This document shows positions 1 to 30,210 of a stretch of 64,000 nucleotides of DNA, one piece after another. The DNA lies in assembly GCF_030013205.1 (NCBI RefSeq), contig NZ_CP122649.1; one strand, 5' to 3'. A program made the position numbers and the translations under genes. This DNA comes from Escherichia coli (GTDB taxonomy: Bacteria > Pseudomonadota > Gammaproteobacteria > Enterobacterales > Enterobacteriaceae). Under the pieces are notes generated by a model that saw only the letters and a list, made by a program, of their open reading frames with translations, was not told the origin of the DNA and made no database searches. The number at the start of each line of letters is the position of its first letter. Position 1 is the first letter of the stretch.

Positions 1-315
1 ATGGATCACGAAAAGGTTGCAGCCAGCTTAGCTGAGCTAGGGAATAGTCACCGACTGTCCGTGTTCCGCTTTCTGGTCAAAGCTGGCCATGATGGGGCTT
101 CGGTCGGAGATATCCAGAAGGGGCTGGGTATTCCTGCTTCGACGCTATCACATCACCTTGCGCGCATGGCCAAGGTAGGGCTGATCCGGCAGGAGAAACA
201 TAGCCGCACGATTGTCTGTATACCCGAGTATGGGCACCTAGAGAATTTGATCGGTTTCTTACAAGAGGAATGTTGTGCAGGTGTCCGGATTGCGCATGAA
301 CCAGAACCGCTTTGA
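1..315 (+). CDS. ArsR/SmtB-family winged-HTH regulator (104 aa)
   Basis: Track ORF; HTH signature around GIPASTLSHHLARMAKVGLI; sits in the accessory segment upstream of tetR(B). Confidence 0.6.
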   Translation: MDHEKVAASLAELGNSHRLSVFRFLVKAGHDGASVGDIQKGLGIPASTLSHHLARMAKVGLIRQEKHSRTIVCIPEYGHLENLIGFLQEECCAGVRIAHEPEPL

Positions 316-775
316 CGCTTGCCCAGCTCTCGCTGTCCTCCCTAGTCAGCATCGCTATGAAGACTCAGGCGAAGGTGGAAACAGAAAATTGGCAGTAGAG
401 TAGGCTGAAGAGGATCAATCAGATAATCCGCTGAGAAAGATTTTCTTCTTTACATCTTTGACATTTTATCAACCAGAAATTCCGGATACCCGAAATATTA
501 AAAAGATTAAAATAACAACAATGGTATTTAATGATGGGTAAACCTAAATACCATGCGGGATCCGCACTATTTTCGGTGATAGCAAAAAATAAAAAAGTAT
601 AAATAATAAACAAAATTATAAGAGAAGGAGAACATGATAAGCGCAGGCCGAGCAATTTAAAGAAGTGTGATATACAACATAAAACAGCAGCATGACCTTT
701 CTATATTTCGTTGCTTATCGAAGTGTTAATTTTCGGGTGGATTACTCTGTTTGTTGATTAATAACGGAGAAAAAT

Positions 776-1475
<700 letters not shown>

Positions 1476-1482
1476 ACTTGCG

Positions 1483-2779
<1,297 letters not shown>

Positions 2780-2789
2780 CTAATTTTTG

Positions 2790-2845
2790 TTGACACTCTA
2801 TCATTGATAGAGTTATTTTACCACTCCCTATCAGTGATAGAGAAA
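2790..2845. promoter_or_regulatory. tetA/tetR divergent promoter with tetO2 and tetO1 operators
   Basis: TTGACA at about 2790; palindromes ACTCTATCATTGATAGAGT (about 2795-2813) and TCCCTATCAGTGATAGAGA (about 2825-2843) just upstream of tetA ATG. Confidence 0.9.
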
Positions 2846-2851
2846 AGTGAA

Positions 2852-4057
2852 ATGAATAGTTCGACAAAGATCGCATTGGTAATTACGTTACTCGATGCCA
2901 TGGGGATTGGCCTTATCATGCCAGTCTTGCCAACGTTATTACGTGAATTTATTGCTTCGGAAGATATCGCTAACCACTTTGGCGTATTGCTTGCACTTTA
3001 TGCGTTAATGCAGGTTATCTTTGCTCCTTGGCTTGGAAAAATGTCTGACCGATTTGGTCGGCGCCCAGTGCTGTTGTTGTCATTAATAGGCGCATCGCTG
3101 GATTACTTATTGCTGGCTTTTTCAAGTGCGCTTTGGATGCTGTATTTAGGCCGTTTGCTTTCAGGGATCACAGGAGCTACTGGGGCTGTCGCGGCATCGG
3201 TCATTGCCGATACCACCTCAGCTTCTCAACGCGTGAAGTGGTTCGGTTGGTTAGGGGCAAGTTTTGGGCTTGGTTTAATAGCGGGGCCTATTATTGGTGG
3301 TTTTGCAGGAGAGATTTCACCGCATAGTCCCTTTTTTATCGCTGCGTTGCTAAATATTGTCGCTTTCCTTGTGGTTATGTTTTGGTTCCGTGAAACCAAA
3401 AATACACGTGATAATACAGATACCGAAGTAGGGGTTGAGACGCAATCGAATTCGGTATACATCACTTTATTTAAAACGATGCCCATTTTGTTGATTATTT
3501 ATTTTTCAGCGCAATTGATAGGCCAAATTCCCGCAACGGTGTGGGTGCTATTTACCGAAAATCGTTTTGGATGGAATAGCATGATGGTTGGCTTTTCATT
3601 AGCGGGTCTTGGTCTTTTACACTCAGTATTCCAAGCCTTTGTGGCAGGAAGAATAGCCACTAAATGGGGCGAAAAAACGGCAGTACTGCTCGGATTTATT
3701 GCAGATAGTAGTGCATTTGCCTTTTTAGCGTTTATATCTGAAGGTTGGTTAGTTTTCCCTGTTTTAATTTTATTGGCTGGTGGTGGGATCGCTTTACCTG
3801 CATTACAGGGAGTGATGTCTATCCAAACAAAGAATCATCAGCAAGGTGCTTTACAGGGATTATTGGTGAGCCTTACCAATGCAACCGGTGTTATTGGCCC
3901 ATTACTGTTTGCTGTTATTTATAATCATTCACTACCAATTTGGGATGGCTGGATTTGGATTATTGGTTTAGCGTTTTACTGTATTATTATCCTGCTATCG
4001 ATGACCTTCATGTTAACCCCTCAAGCTCAGGGGAGTAAACAGGAGACAAGTGCTTAG
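2852..4057 (+). CDS. tet(B): tetracycline efflux MFS transporter TetA, class B
   Basis: 401-aa product starting MNSSTKIALVITLLDAMGIGLIMPVLPTLLREF...; the track ORF has a 16-codon upstream extension. Confidence 0.95.
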   Translation: MNSSTKIALVITLLDAMGIGLIMPVLPTLLREFIASEDIANHFGVLLALYALMQVIFAPWLGKMSDRFGRRPVLLLSLIGASLDYLLLAFSSALWMLYLGRLLSGITGATGAVAASVIADTTSASQRVKWFGWLGASFGLGLIAGPIIGGFAGEISPHSPFFIAALLNIVAFLVVMFWFRETKNTRDNTDTEVGVETQSNSVYITLFKTMPILLIIYFSAQLIGQIPATVWVLFTENRFGWNSMMVGFSLAGLGLLHSVFQAFVAGRIATKWGEKTAVLLGFIADSSAFAFLAFISEGWLVFPVLILLAGGGIALPALQGVMSIQTKNHQQGALQGLLVSLTNATGVIGPLLFAVIYNHSLPIWDGWIWIIGLAFYCIIILLSMTFMLTPQAQGSKQETSA

Positions 4058-4099
4058 TTATTTCGTCACCAAATGATGTTATTCCGCGAAATATAATGA

Positions 4100-4129
4100 C
4101 CCTCTTGATAACCCAAGAGGGCATTTTTT
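4100..4129. terminator. rho-independent terminator between convergent tetA and tetC remnant
   Basis: Stem CCCTCTTG / CAAGAGGG followed by a T-run. Confidence 0.6.
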
Positions 4130-4169
4130 ACGATAAAGAAGATTTAGCTTCAAATAAAACCTATCTATT

Positions 4170-4481
4170 TTATTTATCTTTCAAGCTCAATAAAAAGCCG
4201 CGGTAAATAGCAATAAATTGGCCTTTTTTATCGGCAAGCTCTTTTAGGTTTTTCGCATGTATTGCGATATGCATAAACCAGCCATTGAGTAAGTTTTTAA
4301 GCACATCATCATCATAAGCTTTAAGTTGGTTCTCTTGGATCAATTTGCTGACAATGGCGTTTACCTTACCAGTAATGTATTCAAGGCTAATTTTTTCAAG
4401 TTCATTCCAACCAATGATAGGCATCACTTCTTGGATAGGGATAAGGTTTTTATTATTATCAATAATATAATCAAGATAATG
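4170..4481 (-). pseudogene. tetC: 3' remnant of Tn10 tetC (TetR-family-like regulator), 5' end removed by IS1
   Basis: C-terminal 85+ aa ORF convergent with tetA, ending exactly at the IS1 boundary; identification rests on Tn10 gene order. Confidence 0.5.
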
Positions 4482-4536
4482 GGTGATGCTGCCAACTTAC
4501 TGATTTAGTGTATGATGGTGTTTTTGAGGTGCTCCA

Positions 4537-4812
4537 GTGGCTTCTGTTTCTATCAGCTGTCCCTCCTGTTCAGCTACTGACGGGGTGGTGCGTAACGGCA
4601 AAAGCACCGCCGGACATCAGCGCTATCTCTGCTCTCACTGCCGTAAAACATGGCAACTGCAGTTCACTTACACCGCTTCTCAACCCGGTACGCACCAGAA
4701 AATCATTGATATGGCCATGAATGGCGTTGGATGCCGGGCAACCGCCCGCATTATGGGCGTTGGCCTCAACACGATTTTCCGCCATTTAAAAAACTCAGGC
4801 CGCAGTCGGTAA
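4537..4812 (+). CDS. insA: IS1 InsA
   Basis: 91-aa product [40 protein letters not shown]... Confidence 0.92.
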
Positions 4813-5234
4813 CCTCGCGCATACAGCCGGGCAGTGACGTCATCGTCTGCGCGGAAATGGACGAACAGTGGGGATACGTCGGGGCTAAATCGCGCCAGCG
4901 CTGGCTGTTTTACGCGTATGACAGGCTCCGGAAGACGGTTGTTGCGCACGTATTCGGTGAACGCACTATGGCGACGCTGGGGCGTCTTATGAGCCTGCTG
5001 TCACCCTTTGACGTGGTGATATGGATGACGGATGGCTGGCCGCTGTATGAATCCCGCCTGAAGGGAAAGCTGCACGTAATCAGCAAGCGATATACGCAGC
5101 GAATTGAGCGGCATAACCTGAATCTGAGGCAGCACCTGGCACGGCTGGGACGGAAGTCGCTGTCGTTCTCAAAATCGGTGGAGCTGCATGACAAAGTCAT
5201 CGGGCATTATCTGAACATAAAACACTATCAATAA
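4731..5234 (+). CDS. insB: IS1 InsB reading frame (expressed as an InsAB fusion by -1 frameshift)
   Basis: Track ORF in -1 frame relative to insA, overlapping its 3' end. Confidence 0.85.
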
Positions 5235-5266
5235 GTTGGAGTCATTACCTATTTTTTTTACTACTC

Positions 5267-6073
5267 TCAAATTATTTTAATTCGAGGGAGAGCATAATCC
5301 ATTGTTTTGACGGTTCCATTTTCTTTAATTATATAGTGATGCCAACTATCTGATTTTGCGATTGCATCATCATATATACTTTGTGTAATTGCTAAAAAAT
5401 CTATGTTCATCCATGAAAATATCCCTTCATCAACAAATTCTTTTGATATTAATTCATAGTGACTATTTTTTTTCACTCCAACATATAACTTATATTTTTT
5501 CTCTATATTTTCAGCCAAACTATCAAATGAAATTATTGAGAAGTCACTTCGCTGTTGCCCTCTGATTAGTGCAGTTTTCTGTGTATTATTTTCATATTCT
5601 GATCTACGACCATGAACAAGGACATACTTGAAATTAAATGGATTTCTCCCCATATGTGCCGGTTCTATAAATCCCTGCAATATATTGTTTTTAAAGTGAT
5701 TTCTGTTTGATTCATCATCAAACCAAGCCCTCCATGTGTTCATTTGCTGCAAAGCAAGATTGAAGTCTGCATGAAAAGTTGTAGAGTTGTTTTTAAAATA
5801 TTTCGACGATGGTTTTTCAATTTCAACTAATACTACATTCCAGTTATCCGAGCTTTTTGATAAATATACGAAATCAGGTTTATAATCGCTTGATAGAGGC
5901 AACTTTCTAAATACCGTACTGAAGTGAATTCCATGGTTTTGCTCGAATTCTCTTGGTATGAACATTGTATTTTCTTCAAGGTATGTTTGATAAATCTGTT
6001 CATTCTCTTCTCGATCTAGTAATTCAAGATACTCTTTCTTTTTATCGTTTATTTCTTGACCAGTCATATACAT
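5267..6073 (-). CDS. hypothetical protein, 268 aa, AT-rich orphan gene with possible PD-(D/E)xK-like motif
   Basis: Clean 807-bp ORF, about 30 percent GC, between IS1 and the transposase remnant; motif KPDFVYL...VVLVEIEK. Confidence 0.6.
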   Translation of the reverse strand: MYMTGQEINDKKKEYLELLDREENEQIYQTYLEENTMFIPREFEQNHGIHFSTVFRKLPLSSDYKPDFVYLSKSSDNWNVVLVEIEKPSSKYFKNNSTTFHADFNLALQQMNTWRAWFDDESNRNHFKNNILQGFIEPAHMGRNPFNFKYVLVHGRRSEYENNTQKTALIRGQQRSDFSIISFDSLAENIEKKYKLYVGVKKNSHYELISKEFVDEGIFSWMNIDFLAITQSIYDDAIAKSDSWHHYIIKENGTVKTMDYALPRIKII

Positions 6074-6335
6074 AATTTACCATCTTTAAATTTAAGGCTC
6101 TGATTAGATTCATATCTACGCAATAAATTTTACATAGACTTGGTTTGTGGTAAGAAGTCACCGCGAAGCGGTTCGGGGTTCTGTGACACCCGGACTTTAC
6201 CCCGGCTACCCGACGTTTCTCTTTGTATATAATATCATTGAAGTTATTTGCATTTCTCAGAATTTTTTTCAGGCTTTGATTGCATTAACTGCAACACAGC
6301 GCTGCTGGTCAGTGAGTGCGAGGTTTCCGACAAGT

Positions 6336-7009
6336 TCACCTTTTACCAAAGATGGCCTCAGAGCTTCCTTGAAGCTTTATTATGGCTTCAAGCAGGTCAT
6401 CTTCGTTCAGCGAGCGCTGGGATTTGTTGATGCCTGGAGCATGTCGTCTGCGGGAAGGCTCATCTCCTGAAGGTAGCGACTGGGAGCGATTATTGTCCCT
6501 TTTTTTCTGGACCTGGCGGGCAACATCCAATACATGGCCCAGTCTTTTGTTATCAACAATCGCGACAGGATCGACTTCAGACAATCGGTCGTAGGTGGAG
6601 TAGGGCAGTAGCACGCCATTCAACCGCAGTTCCTTATGTCCGTCAGGATAGTGCCAGACATCAATATACTTGCCGATAGCCCTTCTACTGTATTCGCTGT
6701 CTTCAATCAGATAGAGCATTTTGTCATATTGTACGGTCAGACTTTTTGATACACGACGGGGCTCTCGCCAGGTAAATTCCGCATCCAGGTCATCGTCTAA
6801 TGCCAGCGGCCGATGTGCGTTAAAATCATGCAGGGGGGCTTTGGCGAAGCGCCGGTTATAATCCGCCATGTATTCCTCAGCAAATGCATTCGCGGCTTCT
6901 ATCGTACTGATCCCTTTAAGCCTGAGCTCCTTAACCAGCCGGTCCTGAAGTGTCAGGTGGGCGCGTTCCACACGGCCCTTTGCCTGGCTGGTCTCCGCAC
7001 ATAGCGGGG
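6336..7009 (-). pseudogene. 3' half of an integrase-type (rve, ISNCY/IS1202-like) transposase gene interrupted by the IS26-bounded insertion
   Basis: Reading frame is continuous with 24078-24851 once the insertion and one copy of the 8-bp repeat are removed (...NITPL | CAETSQAKGRVERAHL...). Confidence 0.75.
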
Positions 7010-8095
<1,086 letters not shown>

Positions 8096-8207
8096 TACGC
8101 CTATTTTTATAGGTTAATGTCATGATAATAATGGTTTCTTAGACGTCAGGTGGCACTTTTCGGGGAAATGTGCGCGGAACCCCTATTTGTTTATTTTTCT
8201 AAATACA

Positions 8208-8236
8208 TTCAAATATGTATCCGCTCATGAGACAAT
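8208..8236 (+). promoter_or_regulatory. blaTEM promoter (P3-type -35 TTCAAA / -10 GACAAT)
   Basis: TTCAAA, 17-bp spacer, GACAAT upstream of blaTEM. Confidence 0.7.
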
Positions 8237-8265
8237 AACCCTGGTAAATGCTTCAATAATATTGA

Positions 8266-9138
<873 letters not shown>

Positions 9139-9238
9139 CTGTCAGACCAAGTTTACTCATATATACTTTAGATTGATTTAAAACTTCATTTTTAATTTAA
9201 AAGGATCTAGGTGAAGATCCTTTTTGATAATCTCATGA

Positions 9239-9796
<558 letters not shown>

Positions 9797-9813
9797 GGAC
9801 AAGGAGGTGTGCG

Positions 9814-10176
9814 ATGAGCGCCTACACGGTATCGCAACTGGCCCATAACGCTGGGGTGAGCGTACATATCGTGCGCGACTACCTGGTGCGCGGCTTGTTA
9901 CGGCCGGTGGCCTGCACCACGGGCGGCTACGGCGTGTTCGACGATGCGGCCTTGCAACGGCTGTGCTTCGTGCGCGCGGCCTTCGAGGCGGGTATCGGCC
10001 TGGATGCCCTGGCGCGGCTGTGCCGTGCGCTCGACGCAGCGGACGGCGCACAAGCCGCAGCGCAGCTTGCCGTGCTGCGCCAGTTGGTCGAGCGGCGGCG
10101 CGCGGCGTTGGCCCATCTGGACGCGCAACTGGCCTCCATGCCAGCCGAGCGGGCGCACGAGGAGGCATTGCCGTGA
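9814..10176 (+). CDS. merD: MerD co-regulator
   Basis: [40 protein letters not shown]...; AAGGAGG RBS; the track ORF has an upstream extension. Confidence 0.88.
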
Positions 10177-10409
10177 ACGCCCCTGACAAACTGCCGCCCG
10201 AGACGCGCCAACCCGTTTCCGGCTACCTGTGGGGTGCGCTGGCCGTGTTGACCTGCCCCTGCCATCTGCCGATTCTCGCCGCCGTGCTGGCCGGGACGAC
10301 CGCCGGTGCCTTCCTTGGCGAGCATTGGGGTGTTGCCGCGCTCGCGCTGACCGGCTTGTTCGTTCTGGCCGTAACGCGGCTGCTGCGCGCCTTCCGGGGC
10401 GGATCATGA
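10173..10409 (+). CDS. merE: MerE mercury transporter
   Basis: GTG start overlapping merD stop; 78-aa product [41 protein letters not shown]... Confidence 0.85.
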
Positions 10410-11113
10410 CGAGTTCGCAGCCCGCCGGATGGACGGCGGCCGAGTTGGCGCAGGCGGCGGCGCGCGGACAGCTTGACCTGCATTACCAGCCGCTGGTCGA
10501 TCTGCGCGATCACCGGATCGCTGGCGCGGAAGCGTTGATGCGCTGGCGGCATCCGAGGCTTGGCCTGTTGCCGCCCGGCCAGTTCCTGCCGCTGGCCGAG
10601 TCGTTCGGCCTGATGCCGGAAATAGGCGCGTGGGTGCTGGGCGAGGCCTGTCGCCAGATGCACAAGTGGCAAGGACCGGCATGGCAACCGTTCCGTCTTG
10701 CCATCAATGTGTCCGCCAGCCAGGTTGGGCCAACGTTCGACGACGAGGTAAAGCGGGTGCTGGCCGATATGGCCCTGCCCGCCGAGCTTCTGGAGATCGA
10801 ACTGACCGAATCGGTCGCATTCGGCAATCCAGCCCTGTTCGCCAGTTTCGACGCCTTGCGCGCCATCGGCGTGCGCTTCGCCGCCGACGACTTCGGCACC
10901 GGCTATTCCTGCCTGCAACATCTGAAATGCTGCCCCATCACCACATTGAAAATCGACCAATCCTTTGTCGCCAGGCTCCCGGATGATGCCCGTGACCAAA
11001 CTATCGTGCGGGCGGTGATCCAGCTCGCGCACGGGCTGGGCATGGATGTCATTTTCAGAAGACGACTGCACCAGTTGATTGGGCGTAATGGCTGTTGTGC
11101 AGCCAGCTCCTGA
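10406..11113 (+). CDS. urf2: Tn21 urf2 (EAL-domain protein fragment reading into the integron IRt)
   Basis: [50 protein letters not shown]...; ATG overlaps the merE stop (ATGA). Confidence 0.8.
   Translation: MTSSQPAGWTAAELAQAAARGQLDLHYQPLVDLRDHRIAGAEALMRWRHPRLGLLPPGQFLPLAESFGLMPEIGAWVLGEACRQMHKWQGPAWQPFRLAINVSASQVGPTFDDEVKRVLADMALPAELLEIELTESVAFGNPALFASFDALRAIGVRFAADDFGTGYSCLQHLKCCPITTLKIDQSFVARLPDDARDQTIVRAVIQLAHGLGMDVIFRRRLHQLIGRNGCCAASS
11047..11071. repeat. IRt, 25-bp terminal inverted repeat of the Tn402-type integron tni end
   Basis: TGTCATTTTCAGAAGACGACTGCAC followed by the tniA start. Confidence 0.75.
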
Positions 11114-11187
11114 CAGTTCAATATCAGAAGTGATCTGCACCAATCTCGACTATGCTCAATACTCGTGTGCACCAAAGCGAGGTGAGC

Positions 11188-12439
11188 ATGGCGGCGGACA
11201 CCCCACGGATTCCAGAACAAGGCGTGGCCACTCTGCCTGATGAGGCTTGGGAGCGTGCGCGCCGTCGTGCGGAGATCATCAGTCCGTTGGCGCAGTCGGA
11301 GACGGTCGGGCACGAAGCGGCCGATATGGCGGCTCAGGCGCTGGGCTTGTCTCGGCGCCAGGTATACGTTCTGATCCGGCGTGCCCGGCAAGGCAGCGGC
11401 CTCGTGACGGATCTGGTGCCCGGCCAGTCCGGTGGAGGTAAAGGTAAGGGGCGCTTGCCGGAACCGGTCGAGCGCGTCATCCACGAGCTACTGCAAAAGC
11501 GGTTCCTGACCAAGCAGAAGCGCAGCCTAGCGGCCTTTCACCGCGAAGTCACTCAGGTGTGCAAGGCTCAAAAACTGCGAGTGCCGGCGCGCAATACCGT
11601 GGCCTTACGGATCGCTAGCCTTGACCCGCGCAAGGTCATCCGCCGGCGGGAAGGCCAGGATGCCGCTCGTGACCTACAAGGTGTGGGCGGCGAGCCTCCT
11701 GCCGTGACCGCGCCGCTGGAGCAGGTGCAGATAGACCATACGGTCATCGACCTGATCGTGGTCGATGACCGCGACCGGCAACCTATTGGCCGCCCGTACC
11801 TGACCCTCGCCATCGACGTGTTCACCCGCTGCGTGCTCGGCATGGTCGTCACGCTGGAAGCGCCGTCTGCCGTTTCGGTTGGCCTGTGCCTCGTGCATGT
11901 CGCCTGCGACAAGCGCCCTTGGCTGGAAGGACTGAACGTGGAAATGGATTGGCAGATGAGCGGCAAGCCCTTGCTGCTCTACCTAGACAACGCGGCCGAG
12001 TTCAAGAGCGAGGCCCTGCGCCGGGGTTGCGAGCAGCATGGCATCCGGCTGGACTATCGCCCGCTGGGACAGCCGCACTATGGCGGCATCGTGGAACGGA
12101 TCATCGGCACGGCGATGCAGATGATTCACGACGAACTGCCGGGAACGACCTTCTCCAACCCTGACCAGCGCGGCGACTACGATTCCGAAAACAAGGCCGC
12201 CCTGACGCTGCGCGAGCTAGAGCGCTGGCTCACATTGGCGGTCGGCACCTACCACGGTTCGGTGCACAACGGCCTGCTCCAACCGCCGGCCGCGCGCTGG
12301 GCCGAGGCCGTGGCGCGTGTCGGCGTACCGGCCGTCGTCACACGCGCTACTTCGTTCCTGGTCGATTTTCTGCCGATCCTCCGGCGCACGCTGACCCGCA
12401 CCGGCTTTGTCATCGACCACATCCACTACTACGCCGATG
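11188..12439 (+). pseudogene. tniA: tniA (Tn402/Tn5053-family transposase), 3' end truncated by IS26
   Basis: MAADTPRIPEQGVATLPDEAWERARRRAEIISPLAQ...; frame runs into the IS26 terminal repeat at 12440. Confidence 0.85.
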
Positions 12440-13259
12440 GGCACTGTTGCAAATAGTCGGTGGTGATAAACTTATCATCCCCTTTTGCTGATGGAGCTGC
12501 ACATGAACCCATTCAAAGGCCGGCATTTTCAGCGTGACATCATTCTGTGGGCCGTACGCTGGTACTGCAAATACGGCATCAGTTACCGTGAGCTGCAGGA
12601 GATGCTGGCTGAACGCGGAGTGAATGTCGATCACTCCACGATTTACCGCTGGGTTCAGCGTTATGCGCCTGAAATGGAAAAACGGCTGCGCTGGTACTGG
12701 CGTAACCCTTCCGATCTTTGCCCGTGGCACATGGATGAAACCTACGTGAAGGTCAATGGCCGCTGGGCGTATCTGTACCGGGCCGTCGACAGCCGGGGCC
12801 GCACTGTCGATTTTTATCTCTCCTCCCGTCGTAACAGCAAAGCTGCATACCGGTTTCTGGGTAAAATCCTCAACAACGTGAAGAAGTGGCAGATCCCGCG
12901 ATTCATCAACACGGATAAAGCGCCCGCCTATGGTCGCGCGCTTGCTCTGCTCAAACGCGAAGGCCGGTGCCCGTCTGACGTTGAACACCGACAGATTAAG
13001 TACCGGAACAACGTGATTGAATGCGATCATGGCAAACTGAAACGGATAATCGGCGCCACGCTGGGATTTAAATCCATGAAGACGGCTTACGCCACCATCA
13101 AAGGTATTGAGGTGATGCGTGCACTACGCAAAGGCCAGGCCTCAGCATTTTATTATGGTGATCCCCTGGGCGAAATGCGCCTGGTAAGCAGAGTTTTTGA
13201 AATGTAAGGCCTTTGAATAAGACAAAAGGCTGCCTCATCGCTAACTTTGCAACAGTGCC
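12440..13259 (+). mobile_element. IS26 copy 2 (820 bp, Tnp26 with G at position 184)
   Basis: Terminal repeats GGCACTGTTGCAAA; position-184 codon is GGC, unlike copies 1 and 3. Confidence 0.95.
12503..13207 (+). CDS. tnp26: IS26 transposase Tnp26
   Basis: Same 234-aa product as the other copies except residue 184. Confidence 0.95.
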   Translation: MNPFKGRHFQRDIILWAVRWYCKYGISYRELQEMLAERGVNVDHSTIYRWVQRYAPEMEKRLRWYWRNPSDLCPWHMDETYVKVNGRWAYLYRAVDSRGRTVDFYLSSRRNSKAAYRFLGKILNNVKKWQIPRFINTDKAPAYGRALALLKREGRCPSDVEHRQIKYRNNVIECDHGKLKRIIGATLGFKSMKTAYATIKGIEVMRALRKGQASAFYYGDPLGEMRLVSRVFEM

Positions 13260-13519
13260 CATTTATGAATGTTCCTGTTATGGCTTATGTTCAAGAAAGC
13301 ATTGCCCCTGAAATGATGGGCAAGGTGTTTTCCCTTTTGATGACCGCCATGACTCTTTCTATGCCGATAGGCTTACTTGTTGCAGGTCCGGTTGTTGAGG
13401 TTATAGGTGTTAATACATGGTTTTTCTGGTCTGGTGTTGCGTTGATAGTAAACGCTGTTCTCTGCCGCATTCTGACACGACGCTATGACAAAGTAACAAT
13501 GAAACCGCAAGTGGACTGA
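13260..13519 (+). pseudogene. mef(B): 3' remnant (260 bp) of macrolide efflux MFS gene mef(B), truncated by IS26
   Basis: Hydrophobic MFS C-terminus abutting IS26; matches the known IS26 / mef(B) remnant / sul3 arrangement. Confidence 0.55.
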
Positions 13520-13664
13520 AAAAAGGACCGGGTTGATGATAATTTGTAGTGGTGAGCTTCTGGGAGTACAAAACAAAGTGCTCAAAATTGTCGGGCTCAT
13601 GGCGTTTAACGGTATTAATTTCGCTTATAATAATCTTTCTATAATAGCCTAAAGGAGAATATCT

Positions 13665-14528
13665 ATGATACCTAATAGCGAAAATAAAAGAGTATGGTTT
13701 ATTACCGGAGCAAGCAAGGGGCTTGGCTATGCTTTTACATGCGCCGCCTTGAAAGCCGGGGATAAAGTTGTTGCAGTTGCAAGGACTATCGATAATTTGG
13801 CGAAGCTAGAAGAAACATATCAAGAGAGCTTACTGCCATTAAACCTCGATGTTACAGATAGGGAGGCTGTTTTTTCTACGGTTGAAACAGCAGTTAAACA
13901 TTTCGGTAGGCTTGATATTGTTGTTAATAATGCGGGTATCATGACTATGGGTATGATTGAAGAACTAAACGAATCCGATGCTCGGAAACTAATGGACACA
14001 AACTTTTTTGGAGCTCTTTGGGTTTGTCAGGCAGTGATGCCCTATTTGAGGTCGCAGCGTTCTGGACATATCATACAGATTACAAGCATTGGCGCTATTA
14101 TCTCGGGTCCGATGTCTGGTATTTACAGTGCAAGTAAATTTGCGCTGGAAGGAATGAGTGAAGCCTTAGCAAAAGAAGCGGAACATTTCGGAGTGAAACT
14201 CACTATGGTGGAACCAGGAGGATATTGGACAGATTTATACACTTCGATGAGTTACAGCAATCCATTAGATTCATACGGTACACTGCGCGATGAGCTGGCG
14301 AAACAGTATTCCGAAGATTCGGTCGATAGTGATCCTTCCTTGGCAGCGGAAGCCCTTATGAAATTAGTAGCCAGCAATAATCCGCCTTTGAGGCTTATCC
14401 TTGGCAGCATGGTATACGATTTGGCGATGGATACCTTAAAAGCACGGATGGCTACCTGGGAAGAATGGGAAGCTGTTAGCCGTGCATCAGAAAAGGCTAT
14501 TCCTGCACCGGAGAGATATGGAGTATAA
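13665..14528 (+). CDS. SDR-family short-chain dehydrogenase/reductase
   Basis: 287 aa; glycine-rich NAD(P)-binding motif FITGASKGLG, NNAG, catalytic Y..K (YSASK). Confidence 0.75.
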   Translation: MIPNSENKRVWFITGASKGLGYAFTCAALKAGDKVVAVARTIDNLAKLEETYQESLLPLNLDVTDREAVFSTVETAVKHFGRLDIVVNNAGIMTMGMIEELNESDARKLMDTNFFGALWVCQAVMPYLRSQRSGHIIQITSIGAIISGPMSGIYSASKFALEGMSEALAKEAEHFGVKLTMVEPGGYWTDLYTSMSYSNPLDSYGTLRDELAKQYSEDSVDSDPSLAAEALMKLVASNNPPLRLILGSMVYDLAMDTLKARMATWEEWEAVSRASEKAIPAPERYGV

Positions 14529-14565
14529 TACCAAACATGGTTTTTGAGGCAAGGACGAAACTATC

Positions 14566-14811
14566 ATGAAAATTGAAATTATGGAATATAACCCGGATTG
14601 GACAAAGAATTTTGAAGAAGAGAAAATAAAATTGCTCCATTTTTTCGGTTCTCATGCCGTAGCCATTGAACATATCGGAAGCACGGCGATACCCAATCAA
14701 CGGGCGAAACCGGTTATAGATATATTTATTGGCGTTTCGCCTTTTGCTGAACTACCTTTTATCAGCGCATTTTTAATGCAAAGGAGTATCACCACACTCC
14801 GACAGATATGA
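14566..14811 (+). CDS. GrpB-family-like small ORF (probably a truncated fragment)
   Basis: 81-aa ORF with GrpB-like N-terminus; too short for a full GrpB protein. Confidence 0.4.
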   Translation: MKIEIMEYNPDWTKNFEEEKIKLLHFFGSHAVAIEHIGSTAIPNQRAKPVIDIFIGVSPFAELPFISAFLMQRSITTLRQI

Positions 14812-15279
14812 CAGGCAGATATTTGTTTGCAAAATATACAAATGAAGTTTGGACCCATAATCTTCTTGCTTTGGTGTAGGTATAATACCCAAAAACGAAG
14901 TTTATGCGGAACAGGATAACACCTCGAAATCGGAGTTTATATGGCTTCGTGGGGGAGTTATGTGTTTGAGCTTTGTCGCATTAACGCGAATCAGGGGTTG
15001 ACGGCAGAAATAGACTGGAATTACACTTCTTGGAGTCGGCGTTGCCGGAAAATTCTGATTGGATTAGTTGTTCGGGGTGCGAAAACAGTCGTAGTTCGGG
15101 GAAAAAACCGAATTTTGACCCAAAACCGCGAAAAACTCGAAATGACAGTTCCTATCAGTTTTCATAATGAATTAAAACAAAAAAATTAGGCTGCAAAGAT
15201 AGGGAAAATGTGTCAATTTGCGTAAGTGATAATTAGTCAATTAAGATAAATGCTACTTTTGTAATCAAAGCAAAATGAT

Positions 15280-16071
15280 ATGAGCAAGATTTTTGGAATC
15301 GTAAATATAACCACCGATAGTTTTTCCGATGGAGGACTTTATTTAGATACAGATAAGGCAATTGAGCATGCTCTGCATTTGGTTGAAGATGGAGCAGATG
15401 TGATTGATTTGGGAGCCGCTTCCAGTAATCCTGATACAACTGAAGTGGGCGTTGTGGAAGAAATCAAAAGACTCAAACCTGTCATTAAGGCTTTAAAAGA
15501 AAAAGGCATTTCTATTTCTGTTGATACATTTAAACCTGAGGTTCAGAGTTTTTGCATAGAACAAAAGGTTGATTTTATTAATGATATTCAAGGTTTTCCT
15601 TATCCTGAGATTTATTCAGGCTTGGCAAAGTCAGATTGCAAACTTGTGTTGATGCACTCCGTTCAGCGAATTGGTGCAGCTACTAAAGTTGAAACGAATC
15701 CGGAAGAGGTTTTTACTTCCATGATGGAATTTTTTAAAGAAAGAATTGCTGCTTTAGTTGAGGCTGGTGTAAAGCGTGAACGAATTATTCTTGATCCGGG
15801 TATGGGCTTCTTTTTAGGCTCTAATCCAGAAACATCTATTCTTGTTTTGAAGCGTTTCCCTGAAATTCAAGAAGCTTTTAATTTGCAAGTAATGATTGCA
15901 GTGTCACGGAAATCATTCTTAGGTAAAATAACTGGAACCGATGTGAAATCTCGTTTAGCACCAACTCTTGCAGCAGAAATGTATGCATACAAAAAAGGTG
16001 CAGATTATCTCCGCACCCATGATGTTAAGTCTTTATCAGATGCCTTGAAAATATCCAAAGCCCTAGGTTAG
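15280..16071 (+). CDS. sul3: sulfonamide-resistant dihydropteroate synthase Sul3
   Basis: 263-aa product MSKIFGIVNITTDSFSDGGLYLDTDKAIEHALHLVEDGADVIDLGAASSNPDTTEV...; typical qacH-IS440-sul3 context. Confidence 0.85.
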   Translation: MSKIFGIVNITTDSFSDGGLYLDTDKAIEHALHLVEDGADVIDLGAASSNPDTTEVGVVEEIKRLKPVIKALKEKGISISVDTFKPEVQSFCIEQKVDFINDIQGFPYPEIYSGLAKSDCKLVLMHSVQRIGAATKVETNPEEVFTSMMEFFKERIAALVEAGVKRERIILDPGMGFFLGSNPETSILVLKRFPEIQEAFNLQVMIAVSRKSFLGKITGTDVKSRLAPTLAAEMYAYKKGADYLRTHDVKSLSDALKISKALG

Positions 16072-16317
16072 TTTTATTTTTTTAGCTTTCTAAATGAATA
16101 TGCTATACTTGCTCTGAAGTTGTGTTGGCGTACTTGACTTAGGTCTGGATCTTTCGAACTGTTACTAAGAGGGTAATCATAGCCAAACATAAACTGGAAA
16201 TGTCCTAATTCTAAACCTGTTCCAATACCTACACTATAATCAAGAGGACTTAAACTTCCATCACTTCCAAAAGGTTTTGTGTACTTCTCTTGAGTTTTCG
16301 TAGCTAAATAGTAGTGT

Positions 16318-17004
16318 TTGTTGGTAAATCCAAATAATCCAATATTCAATCTTGCGACCGGGAAAGTCCTCTTGAAAGTACCACAAGTTCGCGGGATGGA
16401 GTTTTATCCCAGCTGCATCGAGAAAGGCATGCGCAGTGAGCGTGCTCTCAAGCTCGCCATCGCCGAAATGTATGTCAAAGGAGTAAGTACCCGCAGGGTC
16501 TCGGATATCGTCGAAATTCTTTGTGGCACCGAAGTCAGCTCGTCCCAGGTCAGCAGGCTGGCAAAGGAGCTCGATGAAGAGATTACGTCTTGGAAGGCGC
16601 AGCCTGTCGGACAGATTCAATACTTGGTACTTGATGCGACCTATGAATCGGTTCGCGTCGGTTCCCATGTGGTCAAGCAGGCGCTTCTAGTGGCTATTGG
16701 CGTTGATTACAGCGGGAATCGGCATATTCTTGACGCCGAAGTCGCGAACAGTGAGGCAGAGGTAAACTGGCGTTCCTTTCTCGAGGGTCTCGTACGACGA
16801 GGGATGCACGGCCTGCGAATGATCACCAGTGATGACCACTCAGGACTGCGCGCGGCAATCGATGCTGTCTTCCCTGGAATTCTGTGGCAACGCTGCCAGT
16901 TTCATCTGCAGCAGAATGCCCACTCCTACGTCACGAAAAAAGATGAGATCCCGCTGATAGCCGCTGATATTCGGAAGGTGTTCAATCGGAATATGTCAAG
17001 ATAG
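16318..17004 (+). pseudogene. IS256-family transposase fragment (IS440-like), N-terminus missing
   Basis: C-terminal DDE region ...ERALKLAIAEMYVKGVSTRRVSD...WQRCQFHLQQNA...; fragment length only. Confidence 0.55.
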
Positions 17005-17250
17005 TTTATGCCAGATTTTTGAGAGGTTTGCATCAAGCAGCCTTCGAAAGAGGACGGCATGACATTGAGACCGGCAAGGCGTCGTAGATACGCACTTTCC
17101 CAGTACGCCACCGTAAGGGGTTTTTCTCTTTGGCAGCAAGAATGGTTTGGTTTCTTTTTTCCTCGGCGCCGTAGGCGTCCGACTAACACCTGAATTAAGC
17201 CGCGCCGCGAAGCGGCGTCGGCTTGAATGAACTGTTAGATGCCAGCCCGA

Positions 17251-17583
17251 TCAATGTGCGCTGACCTTGGATAGCAGATTTAGAACGGCGACGCCACTAA
17301 CGATAAGTCCCATGCCAACGAACGCCCACAAGTCTAGTTTCTGGCCATGGAAGATCCAAGCGATAGCTGCCACAAGTACGATGCCGAGGCCAGCCCAAAC
17401 AGCATAAGCAATGCCGACCGGGATGGACTTGAGTGCGAGAGAGAGGAAATAGAACGCAAGCCCGTAGCCAGCCACAACTACAACAGAAGGAACTAACTTG
17501 GTGAATCCATGGCTGGACTTCAGTGCGGAAGTTGCGACGACCTCACCAAATATTGCAATAGCCAGAAAGAGCCAGTTCTTCAC
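17251..17583 (-). CDS. qacH: SMR-family quaternary ammonium compound efflux protein (qacH/qacL type)
   Basis: 110-aa product from GTG start [24 protein letters not shown]...; four TM segments. Confidence 0.75.
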
Positions 17584-17752
17584 GTGCAATCTCCTCTACG
17601 GTATGAAGGATAAATAGTGGTGGCTATGAGTTGCCAAAAACAGTCTTGCGGCTGTCGATTTTCTGTGAGCATACGCAACGCCAAATCTGGCATCTAACGC
17701 TTGAGTTAAGCCGCGCCGCGAAGCGGCGTCGGCTTGAACGAATTGTTAGACA

Positions 17753-18544
17753 TTATTTGCCGACTACCTTGGTGATCTCGCCTTTCACGTAGTGAACAAA
17801 TTCTTCCAACTGATCTGCGCGGGAGGCCAAGCGATCTTCTTCTTGTCCAAGATAAGCCTGTCTAGCTTCAAGTATGACGGGCTGATACTGGGCCGGCAGG
17901 CGCTCCATTGCCCAGTCGGCAGCGACATCCTTCGGCGCGATTTTGCCGGTTACTGCGCTGTACCAAATGCGGGACAACGTAAGCACTACATTTCGCTCAT
18001 CGCCAGCCCAGTCGGGCGGCGAGTTCCATAGCGTTAAGGTTTCATTTAGCGCCTCAAATAGATCCTGTTCAGGAACCGGATCAAAGAGTTCCTCCGCCGC
18101 TGGACCTACCAAGGCAACGCTATGTTCTCTTGCTTTTGTCAGCAAGATAGCCAGATCAATGTCGATCGTGGCTGGCTCGAAGATACCTGCAAGAATGTCA
18201 TTGCGCTGCCATTCTCCAAATTGCAGTTCGCGCTTAGCTGGATAACGCCACGGAATGATGTCGTCGTGCACAACAATGGTGACTTCTACAGCGCGGAGAA
18301 TCTCGCTCTCTCCAGGGGAAGCCGAAGTTTCCAAAAGGTCGTTGATCAAAGCTCGCCGCGTTGTTTCATCAAGCCTTACGGTCACCGTAACCAGCAAATC
18401 AATATCACTGTGTGGCTTCAGGCCGCCATCCACTGCGGAGCCGTACAAATGTACGGCCAGCAACGTCGGTTCGAGATGGCGCTCGATGACGCCAACTACC
18501 TCTGATAGTTGAGTCGATACTTCGGCGATCACCGCTTCCCTCAT
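17753..18544 (-). CDS. aadA1: aminoglycoside 3''-adenylyltransferase AadA1
   Basis: 263-aa product MREAVIAEVSTQLSEVVGVIERHLEPTLLAVHLYGSAVDGGLKPHSDIDLLV... Confidence 0.9.
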   Translation of the reverse strand: MREAVIAEVSTQLSEVVGVIERHLEPTLLAVHLYGSAVDGGLKPHSDIDLLVTVTVRLDETTRRALINDLLETSASPGESEILRAVEVTIVVHDDIIPWRYPAKRELQFGEWQRNDILAGIFEPATIDIDLAILLTKAREHSVALVGPAAEELFDPVPEQDLFEALNETLTLWNSPPDWAGDERNVVLTLSRIWYSAVTGKIAPKDVAADWAMERLPAQYQPVILEARQAYLGQEEDRLASRADQLEEFVHYVKGEITKVVGK

Positions 18545-18636
18545 GATGTTTAACGCCTGAGCTCAGCCGACCGAAACCGCGTAGCGGTTTTGGGTCGGCT
18601 GCAGCGATTTGTTGGGCGATAGCTTGCCACATTCTC

Positions 18637-19893: not shown

Positions 19894-20157
19894 CACGAAA
19901 CCATCTCCTTGAACAAAGGATTTGGCGGCGCTCCCGTAGAGCAAAAGGATTCATGAGAACGCCGCAACAACCGAAAAATGAAGGTTGCTGCGGCTTACTT
20001 GTCTGCGTTCTTGGAAGTGCTCATCTGCTGACTATCTCATGATTGAATTTGAATCGTAACAACTTTCAAGCAACTCTGCAAGGAGCCTTATTGTGCGCCC
20101 AACGCCGGAGTTAAGCCGCCGCGCGTAGCGCGGTCGGCTTGAACGAATTGTTAGACA

Positions 20158-20949
20158 TCATTTACCAACTGACTTGATGATCTCGCCTTTCACAAAGCGA
20201 ATAAATTCTTCCAAGTGATCTGCGCGTGAGGCCAAGTGATCTTCTTTTTGTCCCAGATAAGCTTGCTTAGCTTCAAGTAAGACGGGCTGATACTGGGCAG
20301 GTAGGCGTTTTATTGCCCAGTCGGCAGCGACATCCTTCGGCGCGATTTTGCCGGTTATTGCGCTGTACCAAATGCGGGACAACGTAAGCACTACATTTCG
20401 CTCATCGCCGGCCCAGTCGGGCTGCGAGTTCCATAGCTTCAAGGTTTCCCTCAGCGCCTCGAATAGATCCTGTTCAGGAACCGGGTCAAAGAATTCCTCC
20501 GCTGCCGGACCTACCAAGGCAACGCTATGTTCTCTTGCTTTTGTAAGCAGGATAGCTAGATCAATGTCGATCATGGCTGGCTCGAAGATACCCGCAAGAA
20601 TGTCATTGCGCTGCCATTCTCCAAATTGCAGCTCGCGCTTAGCCGGATAACGCCACGGGATGATGTCGTCATGCACGACAAGGGTGACTTCTATAGCGCG
20701 GAGCGTCTCGCTCTCGCCAGGGAAAGCCGAAGCCTCCATAAGGTCATTGAGCAATGCTCGCCGCGTCGTTTCATCAAGCTTTACGGCCACAGTAACCAAC
20801 AAATCAATATCGCTGTATGGCTTCAGGCCGCCATCCACTGCGGAGCCGTACAAATGCACGGCCAGCAACGTTGATTCCAGATGGCGCTCAATGACGCTTA
20901 GCACCTCTGATAGTTGGTTCGAAATTTCGATGGTCACCGCTACCCTCAT
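20158..20949 (-). CDS. aadA2: aminoglycoside 3''-adenylyltransferase AadA2
   Basis: Product MRVAVTIEISNQLSEVLSVIERHLESTLLAVHLYGSAVDGGLKPYSDIDLLV... Confidence 0.9.
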   Translation of the reverse strand: MRVAVTIEISNQLSEVLSVIERHLESTLLAVHLYGSAVDGGLKPYSDIDLLVTVAVKLDETTRRALLNDLMEASAFPGESETLRAIEVTLVVHDDIIPWRYPAKRELQFGEWQRNDILAGIFEPAMIDIDLAILLTKAREHSVALVGPAAEEFFDPVPEQDLFEALRETLKLWNSQPDWAGDERNVVLTLSRIWYSAITGKIAPKDVAADWAIKRLPAQYQPVLLEAKQAYLGQKEDHLASRADHLEEFIRFVKGEIIKSVGK

Positions 20950-30205: not shown

Positions 30206-30210
30206 AACGC

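Follow-up and report, generated by a model that had tools for sequence, protein, structure and literature searches.

Introduction

The insertion sequence IS1 prefers AT-rich sites. Adjacent deletions promoted by IS1 were reportedly described by Reif and Saedler in 1975, and replicative intramolecular transposition of IS1 is said to have been described by Turlan and Chandler in 1995. In the classical behaviour of an r-determinant, the IS1-bounded segment is lost by recombination and one IS1 remains.

A Tn10 that lacks tetD and IS10R and that adjoins the IS1 of a composite element has been published (PMC3139670; bioRxiv 10.1101/334409; PMC4861720). The tetC-delta::IS1 configuration of pHCM1-type IncHI1 plasmids has been described with junction PCRs (PMC3139670; also bioRxiv 10.1101/334409). 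The junction PCR markers are 'insA-tetA' and 'cat-HCM1.203' (PMC3139670), and the 'tetC-delta' PCR is an epidemiological marker (PMC4861720). The isolation dates are 1984-85 for pB71 and 1993 for pHCM1 (PMC3139670; bioRxiv 10.1101/334409), and isolates from 1972 already show cat together with the loss of tetD (PMC3139670, Table 5). The RR3 / MREL of monophasic Salmonella 4,[5],12:i:- has the order IS1 - tetC(B)-delta - tetA(B) - tetR(B) - ... - truncated IS10L and also contains IncHI1 backbone ORFs (PMC4861720).

The window analysed in this work is a stretch of 64,000 bp that covers positions 1-64000 of a closed circular plasmid of 216,724 bp (216.7 kb), record NZ_CP122645.1, which is plasmid unnamed2 of E. 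coli ETEC4079 and has an IncHI1 backbone. The configuration in the window is a reduced variant of the pHCM1-type IncHI1 tetC-delta::IS1 configuration. Both of its IS1 junctions are an old and published hallmark of pHCM1-type IncHI1 resistance plasmids; the finding is real, is already known and holds no new biology. The features of the locus are listed in Table 1.

Table 1. Features around the tetC-IS1-sduA junctions, with positions in the window.
Feature	Position	Strand	Basis and remarks
Right end of 4,097-bp insertion in Tn10, between gltS and jemA	1..491	.	Tn10 homology restarts at 492; remainder at record 213119-216724
Tn10 remnant: jemA/B/C-like genes, tetR(B), tet(B), tetC 3' part	492..4481	+	Ungapped R100 Tn10 alignment; annotation
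tetR(B), intact	2147..2770	-	Annotated, 100% identity
tet(B) efflux gene, intact, private S328N substitution (base 3834)	2852..4057	+	Annotation, sequence comparison
tetC remnant, C-terminal 103 codons and stop of 197-codon gene	4170..4481	-	Exact suffix of R100 TetC
Left 9-bp flank AAGATAATG, tetC sequence	4473..4481	.	Same flank at IS1a of pKV7 and pHCM1 and at single IS1 of CP123651.1
IS1, 768 bp (IS1B/IS1R type)	4482..5249	+	IRL GGTGATGCTGCCAACTTACTGAT 4482-4504, IRR 5227-5249, insA 4537-4812, insB' frame to 5234
Right 9-bp flank TATTTTTTT, 17 bp past sduA stop codon	5250..5258	.	Same flank at IS1b of pKV7, pHCM1 and pMAK1
sduA (Shedu immune nuclease, DUF4263), intact	5267..6067	-	PADLOC SduA E = 1.7e-115; Pfam SduA_C E = 1.1e-24; annotation
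35-bp hairpin-capable repeat upstream of sduA	6162..6196	.	Sequence comparison
3' part of ISNCY-family transposase gene, broken at 7009, resumes at 24078-24809	6336..7009	-	ORFs, homology
IS26-bounded 17,068-bp resistance segment within ISNCY gene	7010..24077	.	8-bp duplication TAGCGGGG at 7002-7009 and 24078-24085; homologies; annotation

Loss of the tetD side of Tn10

The window at 492-4481 was aligned without gaps to the Tn10 of R100 (L002 2993-6982) with three mismatches in 3,990 bp (99.9% identity), and the Tn10 homology ends exactly at 4481/4482. This alignment to complete Tn10 had been proposed in the preliminary description of the window, and it bears out the claim made there that the truncated ORF is tetC and ends exactly at the IS1 boundary. 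The translated minus strand of the remnant is identical to the last 103 residues and stop of the 197-aa R100 TetC. The N-terminal 94 codons (282 nt), including the HTH region, have been lost. The remnant retains a weak TetR_C Pfam match and is annotated as a TetC pseudogene in RefSeq. The tetC gene is dead because its DNA-binding half is gone, and tetR and tet(B) remain intact.

Tn10 positions 1-7036 are present as window 492-4481 and record 210065-213118, which are collinear with the reference Tn10 and near-identical to it. Tn10 positions 7037-9147 (2,111 bp: the tetC 5' part, tetD, and IS10R) are missing from all 216,724 bp of the plasmid, so that 2,111 bp of Tn10 or more have truly been deleted. 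The plasmid does not carry a complete transposable Tn10, as it has IS10L only and lacks tetD and IS10R throughout. The IS10-left copy is located at record 210065-211393, approximately 5.3 kb upstream of the window and across the record origin. The earlier statement that no IS10 is present was thus accurate for the window, where a BLAST search with the R100 Tn10 region returned 492-4481 only, but misleading for the plasmid. The loss of the tetD side is a real deletion with one end at the IS1 terminus, as is typical of adjacent deletions associated with IS1: the IS is kept, the deletion starts exactly at the IS terminus, and the deleted DNA is gone from the replicon.

An intramolecular inversion mediated by IS1, or an inversion between inverted IS1 copies, would have moved the tetD side beside a second, inverted IS1. 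IS1-associated inversions have been reported for other IncHI1 plasmids, and in pHCM1 the sduA-to-Tn10 block lies between two IS10 copies in the opposite orientation to that in pKV7 and pMAK1. However, the inversion of pHCM1 is bounded by IS10 and is unrelated to the IS1 junctions, and the reciprocal junction was found in none of the collections searched (PLSDB, genome contigs, and metagenome contigs). The reciprocal product (tetC 5' part, tetD, and IS10R) is missing from the entire plasmid, which refutes an inversion for the window plasmid and leaves this explanation with hardly any weight.

In comparison with the intact Tn10 of R100 and R27, the likeness of 99.9% identity extends from jemA to tetC position 7036. 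The window plasmid differs in the absence of 7037-9147 and in a 4.1-kb insertion with lnu(G) that separates gltS from jemA. The cargo of this 4,097-bp insertion consists of lnu(G), a permease gene, and an ArsR-type HTH gene (1-315; HTH_20/ArsR Pfam matches). Its termini are imperfect inverted repeats of about 24 bp, and it is flanked by an 8-bp duplication GAAATATT at record 213111-213118 and window 492-499. A truncation of Tn10 on its left side at 491/492 was considered and rejected on account of this insertion and its duplication, with gltS and IS10L lying beyond the origin.

The IS1 element and its flanks

The element has the 768-bp length of IS1, imperfect terminal inverted repeats of roughly 23 bp, and the insA and insB' frames (ORFs at 4537-4812 and 4731-5234) with an A6C frameshift site TTTAAAAAAC near 4786. 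The region at 4537-5234 is annotated as an IS1B-family transposase. IRL and IRR have one exact match each in the window, where none is expected by chance. The copy at 4482-5249 is the sole IS1 within the window, and the whole plasmid holds four IS1 copies. In the search for a primary insertion with its duplication intact, the IS1 near corA gave a partial hit that was due to a chance T-rich flank. The window IS1 is identical over 768/768 bp to both Tn2670 IS1 copies in R100 and to IS1a and IS1b of pKV7 and pHCM1.

The 9-bp flanks of IS1 had been claimed to differ, and re-inspection of 4473-4481 and 5250-5258 found no matching repeat. No direct repeat of 8-10 bp exists across IS1 (AAGATAATG versus TATTTTTTT), and AAGATAATG is unique in the window. 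Since the expected target duplication of 9 bp (8-11 bp) is missing, the present flanks did not arise from one simple insertion; the membership of the element in IS1 is unaffected. The remaining IS1 copies of the plasmid were considered as recombination partners, and their flanks match neither AAGATAATG nor TATTTTTTT.

The locus resembles IS1-promoted adjacent deletions in that the IS is kept, the deletion runs from the exact IS1 terminus, the endpoint is AT-rich, and no flanking duplication is present. It differs in that the event is read here from its end product, and recombination between two IS1 copies gives the same product. Two independent insertions of IS1 (or of Tn2670 and IS1), one in tetC and one by sduA and each with a 9-bp duplication, could have been followed by RecA recombination that removed approximately 2.6 kb or more. 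The product of such recombination is identical in sequence to that of a deletion made by the transposase, both sites are AT-rich, and IS1 is abundant in such plasmids, as the four copies here illustrate. However, this route would require two equally oriented insertions only a few kb apart, followed by a recombination, versus one transposition. No record with either insertion and an intact duplication was found in PLSDB or, for the tetC site, in genome and metagenome contigs. We consider this explanation quite improbable.

Junctions in related plasmids

At least 67 PLSDB plasmids, among them pHCM1, pMAK1, pO111_1, pEQ1/2, and pKV7, share the tetC-IS1 junction base-for-base; the 600-bp probe used had to match over 80% or more of its length. 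The probe is 100% identical in pHCM1, pMAK1, pO111_1, pKV7, and others. The IS1-sduA (IS1-right-flank) junction was found in about 50 records. A comparison with IncHI plasmids that carry intact Tn10 had also been proposed; an intact Tn10 at this DUF3800 site was looked for in PLSDB and not found. The IS10R junction was likewise found in neither genome nor metagenome contigs.

The Tn10 insertion point lies in the backbone DUF3800 gene (flank AGCAGAACA) and was mapped against R27. The backbone left of IS10L is identical to those of pKV7 and pHCM1 at 8,664 of 8,664 positions up to the IS10L end, with the same Tn10 site. The tetC breakpoint, the IS1, the DUF3800 Tn10 site, and the IS1-sduA junction are all identical to those of the pHCM1-type (PST1, 'Tn10 insertion B') IncHI1 plasmids pHCM1, pMAK1, pO111_1, pEQ1/2, pB71, and pKV7. 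However, those plasmids have two IS1 copies and a catA1/Tn21/Tn6029 region of 10-22 kb, while the window plasmid has a single IS1 at the locus and no catA1, which was looked for across the complete plasmid. The RR3 / MREL of Salmonella differs in being chromosomal, bounded by IS26, and joined to Tn21 mer instead of sduA.

In most of the relatives, two identical, direct IS1 copies carry one junction each and bracket a Tn2670-type element (catA1 and Tn21), with 10-22 kb of resistance genes between the two copies. Both pKV7 and pHCM1 have the layout tetC-delta-IS1a...IS1b-sduA, with direct IS1 copies that are 100% identical to the window IS1. The preliminary description had proposed an IS1-mediated adjacent deletion of the tetD side that joined the tet module to the gene on the right. 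The tetD side is indeed gone from the whole plasmid, and the breakpoint lies exactly at the IS1 end without a duplication. However, many pHCM1-type plasmids share both junctions to the base, so the event is no peculiarity of the window plasmid. The relatives have these junctions on two IS1 copies, and the simplest reading of the window IS1 is therefore that two copies were fused.

On the inner side, IS1a and IS1b of pHCM1 have the same flanks as the IS1 copies of Tn2670 in R100, and the IncHI1 composite shares its inner junctions with R100. The R100 composite has a 9-bp duplication AAACAGGGA, whereas the outer flanks in the IncHI1 lineage are mismatched. The inner flank of IS1a in pKV7 differs from those in pHCM1 and R100, which shows that these IS1 ends do make adjacent deletions at this locus. 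The outer junctions are invariant in every relative and the interior is variable.

The bridge with a single IS1 was found in only nine PLSDB records (the window plasmid and eight others) and in three of the 5,426 complete E. coli genomes. The single-IS1 records examined carry extra insertions, lnu(G) or IS903B, which are not in pHCM1 and pKV7. The plasmid pPNCS014881.1 has a clean single IS1 and an otherwise complete backbone. An assembly artefact, in which two IS1 copies collapsed to one and the intervening DNA was dropped, is scarcely credible. Short-read assembly can collapse repeats with a length of 768 bp; however, the same bridge is present in the nine PLSDB records and in two more E. 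coli plasmids, both from chicken, and these records come from several host sources and at least four countries (Belgium, USA, and Canada among them), catA1 is nowhere in the plasmid, and the record is a closed circle.

The right side of IS1

The gene right of IS1 had been called an AT-rich orphan gene. This description has to be replaced, as the gene is a Shedu (SduA) predicted anti-phage nuclease gene. Its product matched PADLOC PDLC00378 at residues 1-267 (full length) and Pfam PF14082, with the E-values in Table 1. sduA is an accessory gene seen in IncHI1 plasmids of two lineages. In the window it is intact but has lost its native 3' flank. The IS1-free flank of sduA in pCO_Eco4457-1 reads ...ACCCGAACTCAATT|TATTTTTTTTACTAC at the site. 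IS1-free plasmids have a second copy of the 35-bp repeat 5 bp left of the IS1 insertion point, which is missing from the window plasmid. R27 is unsuitable as a guide to the backbone lost at this locus because it lacks sduA and is too divergent, its ISNCY gene being only about 70% identical.

The IS26-bounded segment lies 1.8 kb from the locus and contains blaTEM-1, merA'-merD-merE-urf2-tniA' of Tn21, mef(B), and integron parts. Its blaTEM-1 DNA matches the composite of pHCM1 and its merA'-tniA' piece matches Tn21 of R100. This composite-like DNA suggests that the lineage once carried the composite.

Proposed history of the locus

We favour, with a probability of roughly 0.6, a history of two steps in which an old deletion at an IS1 end was followed by the loss of a Tn2670-type segment through recombination between two IS1 copies. 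The window IS1 would then be an IS1 of the Tn2670-type composite (the IS1-catA1-Tn21-IS1 r-determinant of R100) in a pHCM1-type IncHI1 plasmid. In the starting state, Tn10 would have been inserted in the backbone DUF3800 gene, a short distance from sduA. In the first and old step, an intramolecular transposition, one IS1 terminus, belonging either to a lone IS1 or to the composite, would have attacked an AT-rich site close by. The 5' 282 bp of tetC, tetD, and IS10R (2,111 bp of Tn10) would have been removed together with the backbone as far as 17 bp downstream of the sduA stop codon. The step would have left unmatched outer flanks, AAGATAATG at the left end of an IS1 and TATTTTTTT at the right end of an IS1. 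In the second and later step, homologous recombination between the two direct IS1 copies would have excised the segment, as in the classical loss of the r-determinant, and one IS1 bridging tetC-delta to sduA would have been the outcome.

The order of the two steps is the one that we infer, and the sequences hold no discriminating SNPs. In the comparison of SNP polarity between double- and single-IS1 plasmids, 0 SNPs were found in approximately 17 kb of backbone among the window plasmid, pHCM1, and pKV7, and all variants in the Tn10 remnant are private. IS1a, IS1b, and the window IS1 were also compared for a hybrid scar; the recombination would be scarless because the copies are identical. Searches of PLSDB, of genome contigs, and of metagenome contigs did not turn up the intermediate IS1(R end)-AAGATAATG-tetC 5'. 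The intermediate ...TATTTTTTT-IS1(L end) and the 5' part of DUF3800 adjoining sduA were not found in PLSDB.

The single IS1 may instead be ancestral. A lone IS1 would have inserted at one of the two sites and made one adjacent deletion to the other decades ago, and would then have served as a 'landing pad' for a circular Tn2670 r-determinant that came into other lineages by homologous recombination; the window lineage would never have had the r-determinant at this position. If true, this would explain the missing target duplication of the composite in the IncHI1 lineage. The invariant outer junctions and varying interior of the relatives, the identity with the Tn2670 IS1 that would make the integration of the circle seamless, the clean single IS1 of pPNCS014881.1, and the absence of contradicting SNPs are consistent with it. 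The window plasmid also keeps an R27-like tricarballylate operon beside ISNCY, which pHCM1, pKV7, and pMAK1 lack. However, the early sequenced members pB71, pHCM1, pMAK1, and pO111_1 all have two IS1 copies, and cat and tetD loss were already combined in the 1972 isolates. The single-IS1 records are also few, those examined have the extra insertions, and the composite-like and Tn21-like DNA sits close by in the window plasmid. An ancestral single IS1 is therefore rather unlikely, and the two-step history is preferred.

A single IS1 read as a collapsed Tn2670 site would explain the presence of tet(B) without catA1 at the locus. Under the same reading, one backbone would both gain and lose its resistance block through IS1.

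Junctions as lineage markers

For annotation and epidemiology, the tetC-delta::IS1 and IS1-sduA junctions can serve as stable markers of the pHCM1-type IncHI1 plasmid lineage. The tetC-delta::IS1 junction is also present in plasmids of Proteus and Providencia and in derived resistance islands on the chromosome of monophasic Salmonella.

IS1 and the truncated Tn10

The window covers positions 1-64000 of NZ_CP122645.1, a circular plasmid of 216,724 bp from porcine enterotoxigenic E. coli (Belgium). The backbone was typed as IncHI1 (trh transfer genes and MOBH relaxase). The left and right terminal inverted repeats of IS1 each have one exact match in the 64-kb window where none is expected by chance, thus this IS1 is the only one in the window. 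In the record annotation, 4537-5234 is an IS1B-family transposase. The 9-bp flanks of IS1 are unequal as previously described, namely AAGATAATG on the left (4473-4481) and TATTTTTTT on the right (5250-5258), and AAGATAATG is unique within the window. The three further IS1 copies of the plasmid likewise have no matching 9-bp flanks. One of them is 735 bp with an internal deletion and two of them flank repE.

The alignment of 492-4481 to Tn10 of R100 is gap-free with 3 mismatches in 3,990 bp and stops precisely at the IS1 edge (4481/4482). This alignment and the exact C-terminal match to TetC of R100 confirm that the truncated reading frame is tetC, ending at the IS1 boundary. The N-terminal 94 codons are missing, and with them the DNA-binding part of TetC, which belongs to the TetR family. 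A private G-to-A change at window position 3834 results in Tet(B) S328N and is not found in the five other Tn10 copies covering that position (R100, R27, pHCM1, pKV7, and CP123651.1).

BLAST with the R100 Tn10 region identified no IS10, tetD, or tetC 5' sequence in the window. The window was thus correctly described as having no IS10, although IS10-left is located outside it. All elements of the preliminary observation hold. The DUF3800 gene, IS10-left (record 210065-211393), and gltS are found upstream of the record origin, so the left side of Tn10 is not truncated. A left truncation at 491/492 was rejected because the break in homology is an insertion of 4,097 bp. The remainder of the plasmid was retrieved and assembled, and BLAST of the whole plasmid identified only one IS10 and no tetD, tetC 5' part, or catA1. 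Since tetD and the tetC 5' part are absent from the entire plasmid, the tetD side of Tn10 (positions 7037-9147, 2,111 bp, counted on the 9,147-bp Tn10 copy of R27) is deleted and not relocated. The missing DNA consists of Tn10 from position 7037 onwards and the backbone as far as 17 bp past sduA. Each edge of it is occupied exactly by an IS1 terminus.

Coordinates of features in the window, in the rest of NZ_CP122645.1 (fetched pieces L013, L015, and L016), and in pCO_Eco4457-1 (L011) and R27 (L012)
Feature	Position	Strand	Basis
IS1, complete, 768 bp	4482-5249	+	direct reading of region
insA frame of IS1	4537-4812		ORF listing
insB' frame of IS1	4731-5234		ORF listing
tetC remnant, C-terminal 103 of 197 TetC residues, exact match	4170-4481	-	translation against R100 TetC
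sduA, intact Shedu nuclease gene	5267-6067	-	PADLOC and Pfam
35-bp hairpin-capable repeat CGCGAAGCGGTTCGGGGTTCTGTGACACCCGGACT	window 6162-6196; L011 14972-15006
Other IS1 copies of NZ_CP122645.1	68174-68908, 168944-169711, 171367-172134 (L013 4174-4908; L015 4944-5711, 7367-8134)
Insertion in Tn10 between gltS and jemA, 4,097 bp	window 1-491 and NZ_CP122645.1 213119-216724 (L016 13119-16724)
IS26-bounded resistance segment, 17,068 bp, in ISNCY-family transposase gene	window 7002-24085
R27-like tricarballylate operon, directly after ISNCY gene	window 24978-30715
Thermonuclease-ISNCY stretch	record 206255-210064 and window 5250-7009; R27 L012 30926-35917; L011 13307-17495

The right-hand neighbour of IS1

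The right-hand neighbour is not an AT-rich orphan gene as had been suggested. It is the Shedu gene sduA, whose product matches PADLOC SduA over the full length (E = 1.7e-115) and Pfam SduA_C with E = 1.1e-24. Its stop codon is 17 bp from IS1. The IS1-free site in pCO_Eco4457-1 was read directly as ...ACCCGAACTCAATT/TATTTTTTTTACTAC. The CGCGAAGCGGTTCGGGGTTCTGTGACACCCGGACT repeat is found on both sides of sduA in that plasmid. The downstream copy, 5 bp away from where IS1 is inserted, is missing in the window. The 35-bp repeats may delimit a small sduA cassette beside the ISNCY element.

The stretch from the thermonuclease gene to ISNCY is a variable, defence-island-like spot in IncHI1 backbones, adjoined by a DNA cytosine methyltransferase gene. 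R27 has a PLD-family gene and a full DUF3800 gene there, pCO_Eco4457-1 has only sduA, and the pHCM1 type combines the PLD gene with a 687-bp insert, the DUF3800 gene interrupted by Tn10, and sduA.

Junctions shared with other plasmids

A 600-bp probe of the tetC-IS1 junction matched 67 PLSDB records with a coverage of at least 80%. Identity is 100% for pHCM1 (S. Typhi CT18), pMAK1, pO111_1, pEQ1/2, pKV7, and many others. The sduA segment was found in 58 PLSDB records, and in about 50 of these the segment begins exactly at an IS1 right end. The sduA site appears to be IS1-free in eight records of the other IncHI1 lineage, as confirmed directly for pCO_Eco4457-1.

The structure of the tetC remnant joined to IS1 is inherited, and it has already been published as a hallmark of IncHI1 plasmids of the pHCM1 type. 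The 'insA-tetA' and 'cat-HCM1.203' PCRs have been used to type the configuration in PST1 plasmids as 'insertion B' of both Tn10 and Tn9, and tetD-negative, cat-positive IncHI1 plasmids have been recorded since 1972 (Holt et al., 2011, PMC3139670). A comparative preprint (10.1101/334409) describes that Tn10 adjoins the IS1 of the composite with tetD and IS10R lost on that side, and credits this observation to Wain et al. (2003). The order IS1, truncated tetC(B), tetA(B), and tetR(B) has also been reported in a chromosomal resistance region of monophasic Salmonella, where a PCR for the truncated tetC was run on 144 strains (García et al., 2016, PMC4861720).

Plasmids of Proteus, Providencia, and Morganella match the probe at 98.8% identity, which shows that the module has spread outside IncHI1. 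In Proteus vulgaris pZN3-cfr-121kb (L018, aligned at 4289-4300), Tn21 merR comes after the junction, and the IS1 left end has lost its terminal G to a 7-bp microdeletion (ATAATGG).

Origin of the single IS1

The pHCM1-type plasmids exhibit the same two outer junctions as the window, but on two separate, directly repeated IS1 copies. The order in pKV7, pHCM1, and pMAK1 is truncated tetC, IS1a, resistance genes, catA1, IS1b, and sduA. IS1a, IS1b (pKV7 and pHCM1), and the window IS1 are 100% identical. The inner flanks of IS1a and IS1b in pHCM1 are the same as in Tn2670 (the r-determinant of R100, bounded by IS1), and the IS1 copies of Tn2670 likewise match the window IS1 at 768/768 positions. 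Tn2670 has a proper 9-bp duplication (AAACAGGGA), whereas the IncHI1 composite has no target duplication. The matching inner flanks and unequal outer flanks thus indicate a Tn2670-type composite between the tetC remnant and sduA without target duplication, and the window IS1 is the Tn2670 IS1.

Classical IS1 adjacent deletions keep the IS, start at its terminus, and leave unmatched flanks. The preliminary description proposed such a deletion of the tetD side. The IS1-associated deletion is sound, but it is inherited, and the most likely reading of the single IS1 is a two-IS1 composite that collapsed, with the direction inferred. Tn10 entered the DUF3800 gene, where its insertion point was mapped against R27 at the flank AGCAGAACA. 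An IS1 end, with either of the two sites as the original insertion, would have deleted the tetD side by intramolecular transposition; RecA may instead have made this first deletion. The IS1a inner flank in pKV7 differs from pHCM1 and R100, so IS1 ends at this locus have made further adjacent deletions, in support of this step. Homologous recombination between IS1a and IS1b would later have excised the composite and left one IS1, as in r-determinant loss. Recombination could leave no scar because the IS1 copies are identical.

The single-IS1 form is rare, being found in 9 PLSDB records and in 3 of 5,426 complete E. coli genomes. Three observations argue for the two-to-one direction. Two copies are present in all early sequenced members. 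Few records have a single IS1, and those that were read bear additional insertions (lnu(G) or IS903B) that are absent from pHCM1 and pKV7. In the window plasmid, blaTEM-1 DNA that matches the pHCM1 composite and a Tn21 piece that matches Tn21 of R100 are located 1.8 kb away. About 17 kb of flanking backbone exhibits no SNPs among the window plasmid, pHCM1, and pKV7, and the variants of the Tn10 remnant are all private. In pPNCS014881.1, IS903B interrupts the tetC remnant that separates tet(B) from the single IS1 (L017 14245-15310). Four sibling Salmonella plasmid records list IS903B under the same match, and these siblings are probably a sub-lineage within the single-IS1 plasmids.

The sduA-to-Tn10 block of pHCM1 is inverted relative to pKV7 and pMAK1, so an IS1-mediated inversion that spared tetD elsewhere was considered first. 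It was excluded by the whole-plasmid BLAST, which found no tetD, and by the absence of a reciprocal junction from PLSDB, genome contigs, and metagenome contigs. The inversion in pHCM1 is between two IS10 copies and is separate from the IS1 junctions. Searches for every intermediate that could be defined gave no hit. Neither the IS1 right end with AAGATAATG and the tetC 5' part nor IS10R with AGCAGAACA and the DUF3800 5' part was found in PLSDB, genome contigs, or metagenome contigs. TATTTTTTT with the IS1 left end and the DUF3800 5' part beside sduA were not found in PLSDB. With no sduA and an ISNCY gene of only about 70% identity, R27 is unfit as a template for the lost backbone. The in-situ evolution of the IncHI1 resistance region has reportedly been analysed by Cain and Hall in J Antimicrob Chemother in 2012.

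Other insertions around the locus

The 4,097-bp insertion carries lnu(G), a permease gene, and an ArsR-type HTH regulator gene; the annotation table lists no transposase within it. An 8-bp target duplication (GAAATATT) flanks it, and its terminal inverted repeats of about 24 bp are imperfect (GGGTATACGGATTTAATGGTTGAT and GGGTATCCGGAATTTCTGGTTGAT). It appears to be common to CP123651.1, MW800634.1, and MW800636.1, judging from sequence matches that all start at window position 1.

The IS26-bounded segment has a perfect 8-bp duplication (TAGCGGGG), and its site is 1.8 kb from IS1. It contains blaTEM-1, merA'-merD-merE-urf2-tniA', mef(B), and integron parts. The blaTEM-1 DNA matches the pHCM1 composite and the merA'-tniA' piece matches Tn21 of R100. 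Within the segment, a Tn2 remnant adjoins merA at position 2931 of R100 Tn21.

The tricarballylate operon consists of genes for a LysR regulator, an FAD dehydrogenase, and an MFS transporter, and a third ORF without Pfam match. It is missing in pHCM1, pKV7, and pMAK1, which have an unrelated 1.1-kb stretch in its place. The two-IS1 plasmid pB71 has a 'citrate operon' (preprint 10.1101/334409); if this is the tricarballylate operon, the operon does not decide the direction of IS1 copy number. A 3.3-kb hypothetical gene of pHCM1, pKV7, and pMAK1 is mostly deleted in the window with the join near 31957-31968.
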